Positions 2,989-51,456 of a DNA stretch of 64,000 nt are shown in pieces. The position numbers and the translations under genes are program-made. Under the pieces are notes generated by a model. The model was given only the letters and a program-made list of their open reading frames with translations, did no database searches and was not told the origin of the DNA. The DNA is taken from assembly GCA_026415775.1 (NCBI GenBank), contig JAOAGL010000001.1, positions 334,233-398,232 of the forward strand, read 5' to 3'. The first letter of the stretch is position 1, and the number at the start of each line of letters is the position of its first letter. This stretch comes from Patescibacteria group bacterium (GTDB lineage: Bacteria > Patescibacteriota > Minisyncoccia > UBA6257 > JAAZHW01).

Positions 2989-3537
2989 ATGTCTAAAATA
3001 GGCAAAAAATTAATTGAAATACCAGAAAAAGTTCAGATTGAAATAAAAGATTCCGAGGTTATTGTTAAGGGTCCCAAGGGAGAATTAAAAATTCCTGTTT
3101 TCCAAGGATTTAAATTACAATTAGAAGAGGGTTTCTTAAAAGTTATTCCTCCGGAAGACAACAAAAAGCGGACACCGGCCTTTTGGGGAACGTTGCGTGC
3201 TTTAATAGCCAACGCAGTTAAAGGTGTAATTGAGGGATATGAGAAAAAATTAGAAATTGAAGGCATTGGTTATCGTGCTAATGTCGAAGGAAAGTTTTTA
3301 GTTTTAAATCTCGGTTTTTCTCATCCGATTCGTTATGAAATTCCCGAAGGCATTCAGATTACAACCGAAAAGAATATTATTACGGTTTCGGGCACTGATA
3401 AACAATTAGTTGGCCAAGTTGCGGCTAAAATCAGATCCTTTAGAAAGCCCGAGCCATATAAAGGTAAGGGTATTCATTATCTCGGTGAATATATTCGTCG
3501 AAAAGCCGGTAAAAAAGCTACCGGAACTGCAGCTTAA
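2989..3537 (+). CDS. rplF: 50S ribosomal protein L6
   Basis: 182 aa; SKIGKKLIEIPEKVQIE...VKGPKGEL is the typical L6 two-domain repeat. Confidence 0.9.
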   Translation: MSKIGKKLIEIPEKVQIEIKDSEVIVKGPKGELKIPVFQGFKLQLEEGFLKVIPPEDNKKRTPAFWGTLRALIANAVKGVIEGYEKKLEIEGIGYRANVEGKFLVLNLGFSHPIRYEIPEGIQITTEKNIITVSGTDKQLVGQVAAKIRSFRKPEPYKGKGIHYLGEYIRRKAGKKATGTAA

Positions 3538-13175: not shown

Positions 13176-16322
<3,147 letters not shown>

Positions 16323-16359
16323 AAAAATGCTTCATTAAAAATTCATTCTCAGCAAAGAC

Positions 16360-16477
16360 TTCTCGGTGATTTAGCCCATTGTGTACCACCTCTTCCCATT
16401 CCGAACAGAGAAGTGAAAGCAATGGGCGCCGATGGTACTCACCCGAACACGGTGGGAAGAGTAGGCTTCGCCGAGAA
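16360..16477 (+). rRNA. rrf: 5S ribosomal RNA
   Basis: CTTCTCGGTG...CCACCTCTTCCCATTCCGAACAGAGAAGTGAAAG...GCGCCGATGGTACT...CGCCGAGAA has conserved 5S loop motifs and terminal helix I. Confidence 0.85.
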
Positions 16478-38286: not shown

Positions 38287-38361
38287 GCGTGTGTAGTTCA
38301 GTGGTAGAACGCTGTCCTGATAAGACAGAGGTCGGAGGTTCGATCCCTCCCACACGCACCA
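38287..38361 (+). tRNA. tRNA-Ile (anticodon GAU), CCA encoded
   Basis: Cloverleaf: acceptor GCGTGTG/CACACGC, D-arm GTTC/GAAC, anticodon loop CTGATAA, T-loop GGTTCGATCC, discriminator A, CCA. Confidence 0.85.
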
Positions 38362-38389
38362 TTGACAAATAATATGTTTTGATTATAAT
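38362..38389 (+). promoter_or_regulatory. Consensus sigma70-type promoter TTGACA-N16-TATAAT
   Basis: TTGACA at 38362-38367 (abutting the tRNA CCA end), TATAAT at 38384-38389. Confidence 0.45.
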
Positions 38390-38397
38390 AGAAAGTG

Positions 38398-38476
38398 AAG
38401 TGAGTGCTTTTCCTGAACGTTTATTCGTTTAGGAAATCCAATTACCGTGGAAAGCCGCCCGTAAGGGCGGTTTTCT
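38398..38476 (+). ncRNA. Candidate small RNA (about 75-80 nt) bounded by a consensus promoter and an intrinsic terminator
   Basis: Predicted transcript begins about 38396-38398 and ends at hairpin AAGCCGCCC-gtaa-GGGCGGTTTT (38451-38476). Internal imperfect hairpin CCTGAACG/CGTTTAGG. No ORF or Shine-Dalgarno-like sequence. Confidence 0.3.
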
Positions 38477-38551
38477 TCATTATTTCTTGATTTTGATTAT
38501 TTTTTTGATATACTTGGGACAGTATTTAAATCTTTAAAAAGGAGGTGCAAA

Positions 38552-38935
38552 GTGATTTTAAAATATTCCGATTTAAATAAGGAAGAGCAAGATATTTTGA
38601 TTAGAGCAAAAGAAGCTAGAAAATTATTCGTTCTTTTTTCAACAGCAGAAGCGGGAGTTACTTTGAAAATAAGCGATGGAAGAATCATGACCCATGGTAA
38701 TCTTGATCCAACGGCTCTATATCCCAGTCTCAATGCTATTCTGGTGCTAATAAAAAATATAAGAAAGAATGACAAAATAGAAAAAATTGCTATTGTAAGT
38801 AATGAAAGTAAAGAAGTTTGGGAAACGGCGATATATGTATTAAAAAGATTCCTAAAAGAGCGGTGTGAAAATGCAGAAATTTTTATTTCAAATCCAACAC
38901 TTGAAATAATAAATAAATACAAATTAACCATTTAA
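38552..38935 (+). CDS. Hypothetical protein (127 aa), GTG start with strong Shine-Dalgarno-like sequence
   Basis: AAAGGAGGTG 5 nt upstream of the GTG at 38552; own terminator downstream; no recognisable motif. Confidence 0.5.
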   Translation: MILKYSDLNKEEQDILIRAKEARKLFVLFSTAEAGVTLKISDGRIMTHGNLDPTALYPSLNAILVLIKNIRKNDKIEKIAIVSNESKEVWETAIYVLKRFLKERCENAEIFISNPTLEIINKYKLTI

Positions 38936-38958
38936 AAGCGCCCTCTGGCGCTTTTCTA
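38934..38958 (+). terminator. Rho-independent terminator
   Basis: AAAAGCGCC-ctct-GGCGCTTTT. Confidence 0.55.
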
Positions 38959-39013
38959 TTTTTAATTGCTCTTTTATAGAAATTGATTATAATATTAAAT
39001 AGATTCGGTTCTA

Positions 39014-39077
39014 TTCTGGCCCGAAGGTTGAGCACTCACTTAAATGGTAATTGGAGTCAACCTCCTTCGGGCCAGAA
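39014..39077 (+). promoter_or_regulatory. Long perfect hairpin in the murB leader (14-bp stem, no U-tract)
   Basis: TTCTGGCCCGAAGG ... CCTTCGGGCCAGAA with an inner AGGTTGA/TCAACCT pairing. Lies 20 nt upstream of the murB ATG at 39098. Confidence 0.35.
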
Positions 39078-39097
39078 TGGAACGGAAGCAAATAAAA

Positions 39098-40030
39098 ATG
39101 GAATTACAAAAAAATATTTTATTAAAACAATTTACCACTTTTCAAATTGGCGGACCAGCTGAATATTTCGTTGAAATTTCCGATTTAGAAGGATTAAAAA
39201 ATTCTATTCAAAAAGCATATCAACAAGACAAACCATTTTTTGTTTTGGGAGGAGGTTCCAACTTGTTGGTTAGTGATAGCGGATTTAAGGGTCTTGTCAT
39301 AAAAATTAAAAATGTGGGAATGGAGTTTCTAGAAAATAATAATCAGATAAAAATAATTGTTTTAGCCGGTACGCCCTTAGCGTTACTTCTTCAAAAAACT
39401 CTTGAAATGGGTTTGACAGGATTAGAATGGGCAGCAGGTATTCCGGGAACAGTGGGAGGAGCGATTTTTGGAAATAGCGGAGCTTATGGGCAAAGCATGG
39501 GTGAATGCATTAACAAAGTTTTAGCTTTAAACCCTCAAACATTTGAAATTTATGAATTTTCTCAAAAAGAATGTGAATTTTCTTACAGAGATAGTATTTT
39601 TAAAAGAAATAACTTTATTATTTTATCTGCTGAAATAATACTTTTGAGAGGGGATAAGGATTTAATTAAGAAAAAAGTAGTAGAATATATAAAAGAAAGG
39701 AGAATGAAAACACCACCATATCCCTCAGCTGGTTGTATTTTTAAAAATATTTCTATTGATAAATTAACACAAGAACAATTAAGGCAAATTCCGCCCGAAA
39801 AAATTAAGGGTGGCAAAGTGCCAGTTGGATATTTAATAGATCAATGTGGTTTAAGAGGAAAAAGAATAGGAGATGCTCAAATTTCAGAAATGCACGCTAA
39901 TTTCATTATTAATTTAGAAAATGCCAAGGCTGCTGAAGTTTATCAGTTAATAAACCTTTGCAAAGAAGCAGTTTTGAATAAATTCGGAATTAATTTAGAA
40001 GAAGAAATTCGTTATTTAGGGAATTTTTAA
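39098..40030 (+). CDS. murB: UDP-N-acetylenolpyruvoylglucosamine reductase
   Basis: FAD-binding N-terminus TTFQIGGPAEYF...VLGGGSNLLVSD. In-frame upstream ATGs at 39044 and 39077 lie inside the leader hairpin. Confidence 0.85.
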   Translation: MELQKNILLKQFTTFQIGGPAEYFVEISDLEGLKNSIQKAYQQDKPFFVLGGGSNLLVSDSGFKGLVIKIKNVGMEFLENNNQIKIIVLAGTPLALLLQKTLEMGLTGLEWAAGIPGTVGGAIFGNSGAYGQSMGECINKVLALNPQTFEIYEFSQKECEFSYRDSIFKRNNFIILSAEIILLRGDKDLIKKKVVEYIKERRMKTPPYPSAGCIFKNISIDKLTQEQLRQIPPEKIKGGKVPVGYLIDQCGLRGKRIGDAQISEMHANFIINLENAKAAEVYQLINLCKEAVLNKFGINLEEEIRYLGNF

Positions 40031-40059: not shown

Positions 40060-40437
40060 ATGAATATTAATTATAAAACTAAAAATCTTGTTCTCGATGA
40101 AGAAATAAAAAATTATCTAGAAGATAAAATTAGTAGTCTTATCGAAAAATATCTTTTAAAGCTTGATGAAAAAGAAAATATTCAGGTTGATTGTGAGATT
40201 TCTCGAGAAACCCATCATCAAAAGGGAAATGTTTATTATGTAGAAGTTAATATGGAATTGCCAGGGCGTATTTTAAGAGCAGCAAAATATCATTCCGATA
40301 TTCAGAGCGGAATTGATGAAGTAGAGGGGGATTTAAAAAGACAAATTAAAAAATATCGAGAAATTAATAAAGCTAAAACACGAAAAGATTGGTTAAAATT
40401 AAAAAATTTTATCAGAGGAATTTTTAATAAAGAGTAA
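40060..40437 (+). CDS. hpf: Ribosome hibernation promoting factor / RaiA family
   Basis: 125 aa; MNINYKTKNLVLDEEIKNYLEDKI...YVEVNMELPG matches the YfiA/HPF fold pattern. Confidence 0.8.
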   Translation: MNINYKTKNLVLDEEIKNYLEDKISSLIEKYLLKLDEKENIQVDCEISRETHHQKGNVYYVEVNMELPGRILRAAKYHSDIQSGIDEVEGDLKRQIKKYREINKAKTRKDWLKLKNFIRGIFNKE

Positions 40438-51088: not shown

Positions 51089-51227
51089 TTTTCAGTTAAA
51101 ATAAGAGTGTTTTAAAACAAGGTCGGAAAAATCGTTTTATCTAATTTAGTTATTTTCATAATAAAATAACGGAAGATCAATAAAACGGAAATAAGTGTAC
51201 CAGGGAAATAATCAAGGAGAAAGACAG

Positions 51228-51410
51228 ATGTTTCACCCCAAAGAAGAAGAGAAATGGATTTGCGCTGAATGTGGTGCTGAAATTACTGAATTACCATTTG
51301 ATCCCCGCCGGGATGAAGGTGGTAATGTCAGCGGTAATCTCTACTGCCGTGAGTGCCACAGAAAGAGACAATCCCAATTTCGAAATCGACGTGGTGGACG
51401 AAGATTCTAA
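51228..51410 (+). CDS. Small zinc-ribbon protein (CxxC-x21-CxxC), Arg-rich C-terminus; locally GC-rich
   Basis: Shine-Dalgarno-like AAGGAGA upstream of the ATG at 51228; ICAECGAEI...YCRECHRKRQSQFRNRRGGRRF; own terminator. The ORF track starts it at 51195. Confidence 0.45.
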   Translation: MFHPKEEEKWICAECGAEITELPFDPRRDEGGNVSGNLYCRECHRKRQSQFRNRRGGRRF

Positions 51411-51429: not shown

Positions 51430-51456
51430 AAACCCCGTTAAAAACGGGGTTTTGTT
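51430..51456 (+). terminator. Rho-independent terminator
   Basis: AACCCCGTT-aaaa-ACGGGGTTTTGTT. Confidence 0.6.

Follow-up and report, generated by a model that had tools for sequence, protein, structure and literature searches.

Trans-encoded small RNAs of the enterobacterial RybB/OmrA type act by base-pairing, carry a 5'-terminal seed and end in an intrinsic terminator. In the CopA-CopT system of plasmid R1, an antisense RNA makes hairpin-loop contacts and a four-way junction forms, and in the countertranscript-driven attenuation of pT181 and pIP501 a terminator forms in the nascent leader. T-box leaders are tRNA-sensing riboswitches, and sRNA sponges or decoys such as 3'ETS-leuZ and SroC are small transcripts with a high-affinity site for another sRNA. 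For Staphylococcus aureus, an sRNA acting in trans has been reported to bind a leader that is itself structured and cis-regulatory, a combination that the authors call unprecedented (bioRxiv 10.1101/2024.09.30.615890).

The locus described here lies in a 64-kb stretch of DNA, which was analysed as a whole and is called the window (Table 1). Comparison with related loci supports the view that one short segment of it is a stand-alone small RNA gene of about 80 nt (RNA-1), the product of which is predicted to pair with the loop of a hairpin (RNA-2) in the murB leader. At the level of comparative sequence analysis we regard the predicted RNAs, their promoters, their structures and their pairing as established, the pairing by co-variation. 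That both RNAs are made as transcripts we infer from the promoters and terminators. With moderate confidence we regard RNA-1 as a dedicated riboregulator, one that acts by clamping the hairpin of the murB leader.

Like the RybB/OmrA-type sRNAs, RNA-1 appears to be an independent gene with a sigma-70 promoter, a 5' seed, an internal hairpin and a Rho-independent terminator, and it is predicted to pair with an mRNA 5' leader. Unlike in that class, the pairing is bipartite and circularly permuted, the target is not a ribosome-binding site but the loop of a hairpin, well away from the start codon, this target is encoded next door and apparently unique, and the host mostly lacks Shine-Dalgarno (SD) sequences. 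Unlike usual sRNAs, RNA-1 is also conserved in sequence down to 37% MurB identity. With CopA-CopT the pair shares the contact to a leader-hairpin loop and the joining of two intermolecular helices and intramolecular stems in a four-helix junction. However, CopA- and pT181-type RNAs are cis-encoded, fully complementary hairpins, whereas RNA-1 is trans-encoded, matches its target in blocks of 8-15 bp only, and would keep its own hairpin unmelted at the junction. In contrast to the plasmid antisense systems, RNA-1 and murB are chromosomal, the gene concerned is a housekeeping gene, and a terminator U-run is present in some lineages only. As in a T-box, the leader would bind a separately transcribed, structured RNA at two sites and thereby decide what becomes of a hairpin or terminator further downstream. 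The ligand of RNA-2 would nevertheless be a dedicated sRNA and not a tRNA, and RNA-2 has neither a specifier loop nor a T-box sequence nor an antiterminator/terminator pair. Where RNA-2 has its own terminator it would fit the description of a sponge, but it is usually the murB 5' UTR, no other RNA-1 targets are known, and the two-segment junction geometry is atypical of sponges. The leader in the S. aureus example is reported to be a metabolite or metal riboswitch of known type, and further roles are ascribed to its sRNA (bioRxiv 10.1101/2024.09.30.615890), whereas RNA-2 has no known ligand and RNA-1 is apparently dedicated.

Table 1. Features of the RNA-1/RNA-2 locus in window coordinates.
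Feature	Position	Strand	Description
tRNA-Ile(GAT)	38287-38361	+	ARAGORN; Rfam tRNA 74.9 bits
RNA-1 promoter	38362-38389	+	-35 TTGACA 38362-38367, 16-nt spacer, -10 TATAAT 38384-38389
RNA-1	38396-38480	+	small RNA, ~80-85 nt; predicted ends, 5' from -10 spacing, 3' from terminator T-run
Segment A	38398-38408	+	5'-terminal seed AAGUGAGUGCU; pairs with A' (39031-39041)
RNA-1 internal hairpin H	38409-38436	+	between A and B; 11 bp including one G.U, 6-nt loop
Segment B	38437-38446	+	UCCAAUUACC; pairs with B' (39046-39055)
RNA-1 intrinsic terminator	38449-38480 (hairpin 38449-38476)	+	12-bp stem, GUAA loop, U-rich tail
Optional passenger ORF, 127 aa	38552-38935	+	between the two RNA genes; degenerate cytidine-deaminase homologue, outside the module
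RNA-2/murB promoter	38966-38993	+	-35-like TTGCTC 38966-38971, 16-nt spacer, -10 TATAAT 38988-38993; read from the sequence
RNA-2	39004-39087	+	5'-terminal hairpin of the murB transcript; stem P1 39004-39027 with 39064-39087; 34-36-nt apical loop
A'	39031-39041	+	AGCACUCACUU; RNA-1 seed target within the RNA-2 apical loop
B'	39046-39055	+	GGUAAUUGGA; pairs with segment B; AAAU between A' and B'
Junction strand	39056-39061	+	GUCAAC (within AAUUGGRGUCAAC); conserved
murB	39098-40030	+	UDP-N-acetylenolpyruvoylglucosamine reductase; Pfam MurB_C 2e-29, FAD_binding_4 2e-16
hpf	40060-40437	+	downstream of murB; Pfam Ribosomal_S30AE 1e-13

The RNA-1 promoter matches the sigma-70 consensus at 12 of 12 positions and is the top-scoring site in a 4-kb scan. 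An earlier, sequence-only reading of this DNA had placed a TTGACA-N16-TATAAT promoter directly after the CCA end of the tRNA-Ile, followed by a stretch of about 78 nt with an internal imperfect hairpin and a strong intrinsic terminator. All three elements were recovered. The terminator stem has 12 pairs, 7 of them G-C, with a T-rich tail behind it, and the whole RNA folds with -41.1 kcal/mol (z = -7.1 relative to shuffles). The same reading had called the stretch non-coding and without a good start codon. This holds in that the region is not conserved as coding in relatives, although a 28-codon GTG ORF (38404-38490) overlaps RNA-1. Its further remark that the stretch contains no SD sequence carries no weight as an argument, since SD sequences precede only 2 of the window's 48 long ORFs.

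The 127-aa ORF between the two RNA genes gave no match in a Pfam search and none in GTDB genomes, and has only two homologues among 5.8 billion proteins. It is 25% identical to the cdd of a related locus (L031), has lost the HAE motif, and is missing from L006, L029, L030, L032, L034 and L035; it is best classified as an orphan pseudo-cdd.

Relatives were gathered via MurB and by a loop-motif scan of metagenomes, the orphan 127-aa ORF being too rare to lead to them. The RNA-1/RNA-2 pair is present in about 55 related loci, at MurB identities down to 37%. Scanning JGI metagenomes with the loop motif only returned 46 loci, with murB on the same strand 26-190 nt downstream in 39 of them and an identifiable partner RNA-1 in 43. 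Two of the motif-scan loci, L071 and L079, were discarded as false matches, since neither murB nor a partner RNA-1 occurs there. The murB loci of Gottesmanbacteria and Peribacteria, which lie outside the clade, do not contain the hairpin.

Every one of the 40 distinct upstream regions of RNA-1 homologues has a -35 box TTGACA or TTGACT, a spacer of 16 or 17 nt and a -10 box TAnnnT, with the seed starting 5-10 nt past the latter. The terminator is always present, and its stem is preserved while its loop changes. RNA-1 differs by a single substitution where the intervening ORF diverges by about 9%, and at 60-73% MurB identity RNA-1 and the RNA-2 loop are essentially identical. Hairpin H keeps its structure with compensatory changes, and substitutions in close relatives sit in its loop; in distant clades (e.g. 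L038, L041) it is variable, displaced or absent. No tRNA adjoins RNA-1 in L029, L032 and many metagenome loci, and in L030 a 110-nt spacer with RNA-1's own promoter separates the two. Since the unit occurs where no tRNA adjoins, RNA-1 is not a tRNA trailer, and we take the tRNA-Ile(GAT) to be a neighbour in the window lineage only, outside the module. The conserved spacing of promoter, element and terminator bears out the proposal of an independent small RNA. There is usually no ORF between RNA-1 and RNA-2, which lie 116 to 874 nt apart.

The 11-mer AAGTGAGTGCT (38398-38408) is the exact reverse complement of positions 39031-39041, so that both the coordinates and the loop position of the complementarity to the apical region of the murB leader hairpin were given correctly by the sequence-only reading. 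A second complement had been overlooked: the 10-mer TCCAATTACC (38437-38446) matches GGTAATTGGA (39046-39055) and is unique in the window. The A and A' 11-mers are also each unique in the window, for which 0.4 matches with at most one mismatch are expected. Among the non-self sites in the whole 64 kb, the RNA-1 seed pairs best with A' (-19.4 kcal/mol). A second site, at 51349 on the minus strand (-17.4 kcal/mol), is antisense to a small zinc-ribbon ORF and was dismissed as a chance match; beyond these two, the window contains no site complementary to the seed. Both A' and B' lie inside the 34-nt apical loop of RNA-2. The segments are ordered A-hairpin-B in RNA-1 and A'-linker-B' in RNA-2, which is a permuted, non-nested arrangement. 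Because of this order, the complex is expected to be a four-way junction and not a linear duplex. As the linker from A' to B' measures 0-4 nt, the two helices may not form fully at the same time.

B and B' co-vary through at least eight sequence types: TCCAATTACC / GGTAATTGGA in the window, TCCAATTGCT / AGCAATTGGA in L032, CCCCAATTTATCCAA / TTGGATAAATTGGGG in L034, CCAATTTATTC / GAATAAATTGG in L035, AATTCTAAAGTT / AACTTTAGAATT in L065, ATTATACATTG / CAATGTATAAT in L053, CTAGGTG / CACCTAG in L038, and TCCAATTCT + ATGTC / GACAT + AGAATTGGA in L041. The mean energy of the B duplex is -15.5 kcal/mol for cognate and about -9.3 kcal/mol for non-cognate combinations (permutation p ~1e-5). The cognate loop ranks first or second for 10 of 10 RNA-1 types; for a given loop, the cognate RNA-1 ranks first or second for nine types and third for L038. 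We also built a joint alignment of 22 distinct pairs in which each RNA was anchored independently on its own conserved core. In this register 82% of cells pair, versus 26-40% in slid registers, and 10 of 19 B pairs show changes on both sides. Each of five consecutive B columns contains 3-4 pair types, all of them Watson-Crick except for G.U in a single column, and has 0-2 of 22 cells unpaired.

Helix A:A' behaves differently. Its core AGUGAGUG:CACUCACU is invariant except for G.U changes in the 22 distinct pairs, and the helix is uninformative with respect to co-variation; what supports it is complementarity together with the co-variation of B. This invariance hints at an additional constraint. 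Since the substitutions in A:A' and B:B' include G.U pairs, selection appears to act at the RNA level on the plus strand. The sequence-only reading had offered two accounts of the complementarity, an sRNA-target pairing or membership of both elements in one repeat family. The B/B' co-variation between RNA-1 and the murB-leader loop supports the former, while the permuted non-nested blocks, the spacing of 116-874 nt, the flipped orientation in L038/L073 and the G.U wobbles lead us to reject the latter. That reading had in fact understated its case, as the pairing is bipartite and conserved over great depth, and the hairpin that it targets is a conserved RNA in its own right.

RNA-2 folds with -45.5 kcal/mol (z = -6.9). 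Its -10 box lies 6-9 nt ahead of the first stem nucleotide, a distance kept across clades, and this nucleotide is probably the transcription start in all of them. The stem of the window lineage comprises about 24 bp (20 contiguous), is not followed by a U-run and ends 10 nt ahead of the murB ATG (39098). Of the 26 stem pairs, 10 carry compensatory changes, and the strand is identified by G.U pairs. The junction strand GUCAAC is invariant in 9 of 9 MurB-derived relatives, down to 52% MurB identity; no conserved pairing partner for it was found in RNA-1, around the murB start or in the 5' strand of the RNA-2 stem. The RNA-2 loop contains no GNRA tetraloop or AGCA motif, features by which SRP RNA is recognised (the latter in helix 8). 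Because most genes in this organism have no SD sequence and very short or no leaders, as seen across the window, the murB leader of about 95 nt is exceptional. SD sequestration by the leader hairpin was dropped as an explanation in an organism that hardly uses such sequences (2/48 ORFs).

A U-run follows the RNA-2 stem in the L034 clade, L037, L051/57 and L065/69, and is absent in the window clade, the L032 clade and L072. The loop (33-38 nt across clades) is far larger than those of canonical terminators, and no single expression platform appears to be conserved across clades. In many clades the AUG lies only 2-20 nt past the stem, which leaves no room for a promoter, so that RNA-2 is physically the murB 5' UTR. 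In several other loci RNA-2 is 60-190 nt away from murB, which may there have leaderless promoters, and cis-control of murB therefore cannot be the sole role of RNA-2. A distant clade contains a self-contained RNA-2 unit of about 65 nt, consisting of a -10 box, 6-8 nt, a 10-bp stem with the conserved loop and a canonical U-run. Two loci, L038 and L073, carry an inverted RNA-2 gene that converges with RNA-1 and diverges from murB; it keeps its own promoter and terminator as well as the complementarity to RNA-1, and murB has its own leaderless-type promoter.

We also compared both RNAs with known families. At the gathering threshold, the 4227 covariance models of Rfam 15 identified only LSU rRNA, 5S rRNA and two tRNAs in the window. 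Between 38200 and 39200, with E values up to 10, there were only sub-threshold chance matches, the best being rnk_pseudo with 24 bits against a threshold of 55 bits, and nine diverse related loci contained tRNAs only. The exclusion of 6S RNA, SRP RNA, tmRNA and RNase P by the sequence-only reading was upheld: cmscan (E up to 10) found no SRP (4.5S), 6S or RNase P RNA over RNA-1/RNA-2, the only tmRNA signal there was a chance permuted-tmRNA fragment (11.6 bits versus 47, E = 7.4), and ARAGORN found no tmRNA. Hammerhead and other ribozymes, two-piece tmRNA and crRNA:tracrRNA were rejected on motifs, size, topology or for want of a model match. An H/ACA-type guide would need the target order B'-N-A', and the order observed is A'-N-B'. 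A T-box leader was rejected as well, with no Rfam T-box match (E up to 10) and RNA-2 being a single hairpin with no conserved alternative pairing. A literature search found no description of RNA-1 or RNA-2. RNA-1 is previously undescribed, as neither RNA is covered by an Rfam family or by a paper that we found.

How might RNA-1 act on murB? The RNA-2 hairpin would form the very beginning of the murB(-hpf) mRNA. RNA-1 would enter its 34-nt apical loop through A:A', using the 5' seed, and through B:B', using the segment after its own hairpin. The result would be a four-way junction that holds RNA-1 inside the RNA-2 loop, its arms being the RNA-2 stem, the RNA-1 hairpin and the two helices A:A' and B:B'. 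Such binding, which is probably co-transcriptional, would clamp the large loop shut and stabilise the hairpin. We favor clamping over opening because no RNA-1 segment was seen to invade the RNA-2 stem. In lineages with a U-run behind the hairpin, clamping would favor premature termination. In the window lineage, which has no U-run and an AUG 10 nt past the stem, the hairpin would be locked beside the start codon and could be open to double-strand RNases. Control of murB-hpf by RNA-1 would thus be negative, the sign being the weakest step of this proposal.

Several of the features described above also fit other explanations. RNA-2 may primarily be a stand-alone small RNA, in which case RNA-1 and RNA-2 would be either sRNA and sponge or the partners of an obligate two-RNA complex, and not a system for cis-control of murB. 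We consider this possible but rather unlikely. It agrees with the self-contained unit with a canonical U-run in the distant clade, with the inverted genes of L038/L073 that keep promoter, terminator and B/B' co-variation, with the 60-190 nt to murB and the possible leaderless promoters of several loci, and with the invariant A/A' and GGRGUCAAC sequences, which suggest a further partner (protein or other RNA). Adjacency to murB would then reflect conserved synteny or a coupling of RNA-2 synthesis to the murB promoter, and RNA-2 of the window lineage would have lost its terminator and become fused to murB. However, murB is directly downstream on the same strand in 39 of the 46 motif-only loci, the distance of 2-20 nt from stem to AUG in many clades leaves no space for another promoter, and the window contains no other RNA-1 target that a sponge could protect. 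The junction might also serve as a bipartite structured RNA that, together with GGRGUCAAC, binds a metabolite or protein, either as a two-piece riboswitch-like sensor or as an RNP scaffold. This seems quite unlikely to us: the way in which the pairing segments are ordered does give a junction architecture, pairing leaves the invariant junction strand unexplained and the invariance of A/A' exceeds pairing needs, but the RNA-1 junction hairpin is variable, displaced or absent in L038 and L041, the junction strands vary apart from GUCAAC, and there is no match to known aptamer or ribozyme models. In a related and improbable proposal, RNA-1 and RNA-2 would each supply half of a single functional RNA that assembles in trans into a four-way-junction sensor or scaffold, in which the AGUGAGUG:CACUCACU helix and GGRGUCAAC would make up a putative site for a cell-wall precursor or protein, giving a split riboswitch-like device that couples murB-hpf to cell state.

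Seen in the window lineage only, the RNA-1 stretch could pass for the 3' trailer or terminator of tRNA-Ile, or for an attenuating leader of the 127-aa ORF, with the complementarity explained as a DNA inverted repeat of a mobile or invertible element or of a repeat family. The promoter begins directly behind the CCA end of the tRNA, no separate tRNA terminator precedes 38449, the RNA-1 terminator lies 75 nt upstream of the ORF, and the two 11-mers form an inverted repeat flanking this ORF. The comparative data contradict this explanation and make it highly improbable. The RNA-1 promoter is kept without an upstream tRNA (L029, L032) or behind the 110-nt spacer (L030), loci in which the contiguity expected of a tRNA 3' trailer-derived RNA is lacking, and the ORF is absent in most relatives and an orphan pseudo-cdd. 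A DNA inverted-repeat element (MITE, IS or invertible segment) was rejected because the order A..B..A'..B' is non-nested, each motif occurs once in 64 kb, the spacing ranges between 116 and 874 nt and the ORF is optional. In addition, G.U changes are mismatches at the DNA level, and RNA complementarity persists where the orientation is flipped (L038/L073). Among these explanations, we retain RNA-1 as a clamp on the murB leader hairpin as our preferred, still provisional, reading.

Patescibacteria (CPR) have tiny genomes with few recognisable regulators and for the most part cannot be cultured, and to our knowledge almost nothing is known about their RNA-based regulation. RNA-1 and RNA-2 constitute a two-gene RNA module with strong comparative support, which is tied to the essential cell-wall gene murB and to hpf and is conserved far deeper than ordinary sRNAs. 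We know of few examples outside plasmid antisense systems in which a permuted two-segment clamp within a hairpin loop leads to a four-way junction. The two RNAs would provide two new families for the annotation of CPR genomes, and the module offers a testable handle on the tuning of peptidoglycan synthesis in these organisms. If the split-device reading were true, this module would be a naturally split riboswitch-like device that links the expression of peptidoglycan and ribosome-hibernation genes to the state of the cell.

The promoter, internal hairpin, terminator and murB-leader complement that the sequence-only reading had described behind a tRNA-Ile gene are all present, and the finding is real: the stretch that they delimit is very probably the gene of a small RNA (RNA-1), which together with a second RNA makes up a module conserved in CPR bacteria (Patescibacteria). 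The window derives from a metagenome-assembled genome of this group. The RNA-1 promoter is the top-scoring site in a 4-kb scan, and hairpin H and the terminator together fold with -41.1 kcal/mol (z = -7.1). The 11-mer at the 5′ end (segment A) is the exact reverse complement of A′, which falls in the loop of RNA-2, a hairpin separated from the murB start by 10 nt; each 11-mer is unique in the 64 kb. The earlier reading was correct on this complement and missed a second one, TCCAATTACC (segment B) with GGTAATTGGA (B′), a pair that is also unique in the window. The 64-kb window contains no other seed-complementary site.

Features of the RNA-1/RNA-2 region and other elements of the window
Feature	Position	Remark
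23S rRNA match	13181-16477	spans 3141 nt; model 2925 nt
tRNA-Ile(GAT)	38287-38361	
RNA-1 promoter	38362-38389	TTGACA-N16-TATAAT, 12/12 match
A	38398-38408	pairs with A′
Hairpin H	38409-38436	11 bp
B	38437-38446	pairs with B′
RNA-1 terminator	38449-38476	12 bp, G+C-rich
127-aa ORF, promoter-like site	38487-38514	with TG
127-aa ORF	38552-38935	
127-aa ORF, terminator	38934-38955	
RNA-2 hairpin	39004-39087	-45.5 kcal/mol, z = -6.9
A′	39031-39041	
B′	39046-39055	
GGRGUCAAC	39056-39061	3′ side of RNA-2 loop
murB	39098-40030	
Non-coding stretch	51090-51228	upstream of small ORF
Small ORF	51229-51410	~60 codons, two CxxC pairs
Small ORF, terminator	~51433-51456	clean

Related loci were reached through MurB or through the RNA-2 loop, the 127-aa ORF that separates the two RNA genes being useless as a query. 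In L001 (88% identical), this ORF has diverged by ~9% at the nucleotide level, compared to a single change in RNA-1, in the terminator loop; RNA-2 also carries one change, a stem U·G turned into C-G. A MurB search led to loci with 87, 73, 64, 60, 58, 55, 54 and 52% MurB identity. All contain RNA-2 directly upstream of murB and RNA-1 upstream of RNA-2, except that an N-run masks the position of RNA-1 in L033. Scanning JGI metagenomes by the loop motif alone (GCACTCRCT-N5-20-AATTGGRGTCAAC) gave 46 loci: 39 have a same-strand murB 26-190 nt downstream, with MurB identities down to 37%, two have an inverted RNA-2, three are cut too short to judge and two are chance matches. A partner RNA-1 lies 116-874 nt from RNA-2 in 43 of the 46. 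Conservation of the promoter and its spacing, proposed earlier as a check, is borne out by all 40 distinct RNA-1 upstream regions, which contain TTGACA (31) or TTGACT (9) spaced by 16 or 17 nt from a TAnnnT -10 box; the seed begins 5-10 nt past this box, where the transcript would start. Compensatory and loop changes leave hairpin H and the terminator intact. The element is missing from the murB loci of Gottesmanbacteria and Peribacteria, which assigns the module to a Parcubacteria-like section of the phylum; L005 and L006 are labelled Minisyncoccia. Rfam 15, also suggested as a check on RNA-1, holds no model that matches either RNA, and we found no description of RNA-1 or RNA-2 in the literature.

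The proposed sRNA-target pairing is supported by the way in which B and B′ change together, with at least eight distinct complementary versions across the loci.

Complementary versions of B (RNA-1) and B′ (RNA-2 loop)
Locus	B	B′
Window	UCCAAUUACC	GGUAAUUGGA
L032	UCCAAUUGCU	AGCAAUUGGA
L034	CCCCAAUUUAUCCAA	UUGGAUAAAUUGGGG
L035	CCAAUUUAUUC	GAAUAAAUUGG
L065	AAUUCUAAAGUU	AACUUUAGAAUU
L053	AUUAUACAUUG	CAAUGUAUAAU
L038	CUAGGUG	CACCUAG
L041	UCCAAUUCU + AUGUC (split)	GACAU + AGAAUUGGA

The mean RNAduplex energy of the B part is -15.5 kcal/mol for cognate versus -9.3 kcal/mol for non-cognate combinations (permutation p ~1e-5). The cognate loop ranks first or second for 10 of 10 distinct RNA-1 types; in the reverse direction the cognate RNA-1 does so for 9 of 10 loops and ranks third for L038. 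In a gap-free alignment with each RNA anchored on its own conserved core (CCAATT, AATTGG), and thus independently of the pairing, standard pairs fill 82% of the cells, as opposed to 26-40% in registers shifted by 1-3 columns. Helix B has 10 of its 19 pairs altered on both sides, and five consecutive columns show 3-4 pair types each (Watson-Crick, with G·U in one column) with 0-2 unpaired cells of 22. The core of helix A, AGUGAGUG:CACUCACU, is invariant; the few changes in this helix are all to G·U. Because such wobbles are mismatches in DNA and on the opposite strand, selection must act on the plus-strand RNAs. RNA-1 is very probably a small RNA that pairs with RNA-2.

RNA-1 presents A, hairpin H and B in this order, and the RNA-2 loop presents A′, AAAU and B′. 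When the strands pair antiparallel, A with its 3′ end and B with its 5′ end join at the base of hairpin H; A′ with its 5′ end and B′ with its 3′ end join where the RNA-2 stem (P1) opens into the loop. From this order of blocks we infer that the complex would be a four-way junction of P1, A:A′, H and B:B′, with RNA-1 inside the RNA-2 loop. Written as one concatenated strand, the complex is a pseudoknot, so ordinary co-folding cannot display both helices together. In a variant RNA-1 (L041, L060 and L075, ~190-650 nt upstream of RNA-2), A and B1 are only 1-3 nt apart, the hairpin follows B1, and AUGUC, a short third block, pairs with GACAU of the RNA-2 loop; this form would give a three-way junction instead.

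The RNA-2 stem shows compensatory changes in 10 of 26 pairs, and its G·U pairs fix the strand. In most clades a -10 box lies 6-9 nt ahead of the first stem nucleotide, which makes RNA-2 a 5′-terminal hairpin; the L032 clade is an exception, where a clear TATAAT precedes the stem by ~30 nt. In many clades, that of the window included, the AUG follows 2-20 nt past the stem, leaving no space for a second promoter, and RNA-2 is physically the murB 5′ UTR. Of the 48 long ORFs of the window (≥150 aa), only 2 show an SD-like motif in the 20 nt upstream, and many genes carry a TATAAT-like box that precedes the ATG by 7-12 nt (e.g., 8120, 18414, 28847, 45822, 51499 and 58883), which suggests mostly leaderless or very short-leader mRNAs. 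Against this background a structured murB leader of ~95 nt is exceptional and presumably regulatory. GGRGUCAAC is invariant down to 52% MurB identity, as counted in loci recovered independently of that strand, and has no conserved pairing partner in RNA-1, RNA-2 or the murB start region. The invariance of A′ may stem in part from a competing 4-bp helix, ACUC:GRGU, in the free loop. A further partner (protein, ligand or third RNA) is suggested by the invariance of both A:A′ and the unpaired GGRGUCAAC.

As to function, we lean slightly towards regulation of the murB leader, and favour a model in which RNA-1 exerts negative control on murB-hpf, with sign and step both proposed. RNA-1 occupies the RNA-2 loop only and never invades the stem. 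The simplest mechanical effect would be that RNA-1 holds together the two ends of a large loop of high entropic cost and so stabilizes the RNA-2 hairpin. Binding would be co-transcriptional, as suggested by the fact that two ~10-bp helices in a closed loop form most easily before the 3′ arm exists. In lineages with a U-run 3′ of the stem (the L034 clade, L037, L051/57 and L065/69), binding should promote intrinsic termination. The window clade has a stem of ~24 bp (20 contiguous) without a U-run; here binding should lock a stable structure beside the start codon, and the long double-stranded segments so created might be cleaved by RNase III. No single expression platform is conserved across clades. 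In L074 (oriented ~2375-2500), the 3′ arm of the stem is overlapped by a second long hairpin 3′ of RNA-2, GGCCCCCACACC...GGTGTGGGGGCC then GGCCCTTTTT; it seems that in this one lineage an antiterminator and a terminator exclude each other.

In the main alternative, RNA-2 may serve RNA-1 as a sponge or partner, or what functions may be the complex of the two. A distant clade has RNA-2 as an autonomous unit of ~65 nt with promoter, hairpin and terminator. L038 (oriented 3240-3500) and L073 (oriented 1690-1900) contain an inverted RNA-2 gene that converges with RNA-1 and diverges from murB; in these loci murB has a separate promoter of the extended -10, leaderless type (TGnTAAAAT-type, 7 nt ahead of the ATG). 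RNA-2 still co-varies with RNA-1 in both loci, so the interaction must be of value even where RNA-2 is not the murB leader. Since RNA complementarity is kept in opposite DNA orientation, we can also exclude DNA-level inverted-repeat explanations, including the earlier suggestion that both elements belong to one repeat family. Mobile elements, repeats and invertible segments are likewise contradicted by the comparative data, and so is assignment to the SRP, 6S, tmRNA, RNase P, T-box, ribozyme or H/ACA-like guide classes. RNA-1 is not a tRNA trailer: it always keeps its promoter, also in L029 and L032, where the tRNA is missing, and L030, where it lies 110 nt away. An attenuator for the 127-aa ORF is rejected because this ORF is missing from most MurB-derived loci.

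As the tRNA-Ile lacks its own terminator, transcription may continue into RNA-1 in the window lineage. The 3′ CCA of this tRNA is genome-encoded (38359-38361); in L006 (73% MurB identity, 2725-2732) CCA is not encoded, and the sequence ahead of the RNA-1 promoter reads ...GCA-CTC-TA. The 127-aa ORF is an orphan, a diverged or degenerate cytidine-deaminase homologue with the catalytic H-A-E motif replaced. It is 25% identical to a 141-aa cdd at the same position in L031, has only two homologues in a database of 5.8 billion proteins, and possesses a strong SD, among the few in the window. Another strong SD (AAGGAG, rare in this genome) precedes the small zinc-ribbon-like ORF, whose upstream non-coding stretch is long for so compact a genome. 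The length of the 23S rRNA match implies an insertion of ~200 nt. A 5S rRNA follows the 23S rRNA; the 64-kb window holds no 16S rRNA gene, which indicates unlinked rRNA genes.

The module is previously undescribed and of a kind already known, a base-pairing small RNA on a leader. What is new is that the clamp on the hairpin loop has two arms in permuted order, that conservation reaches so deep and that the neighbouring target is a dedicated one.
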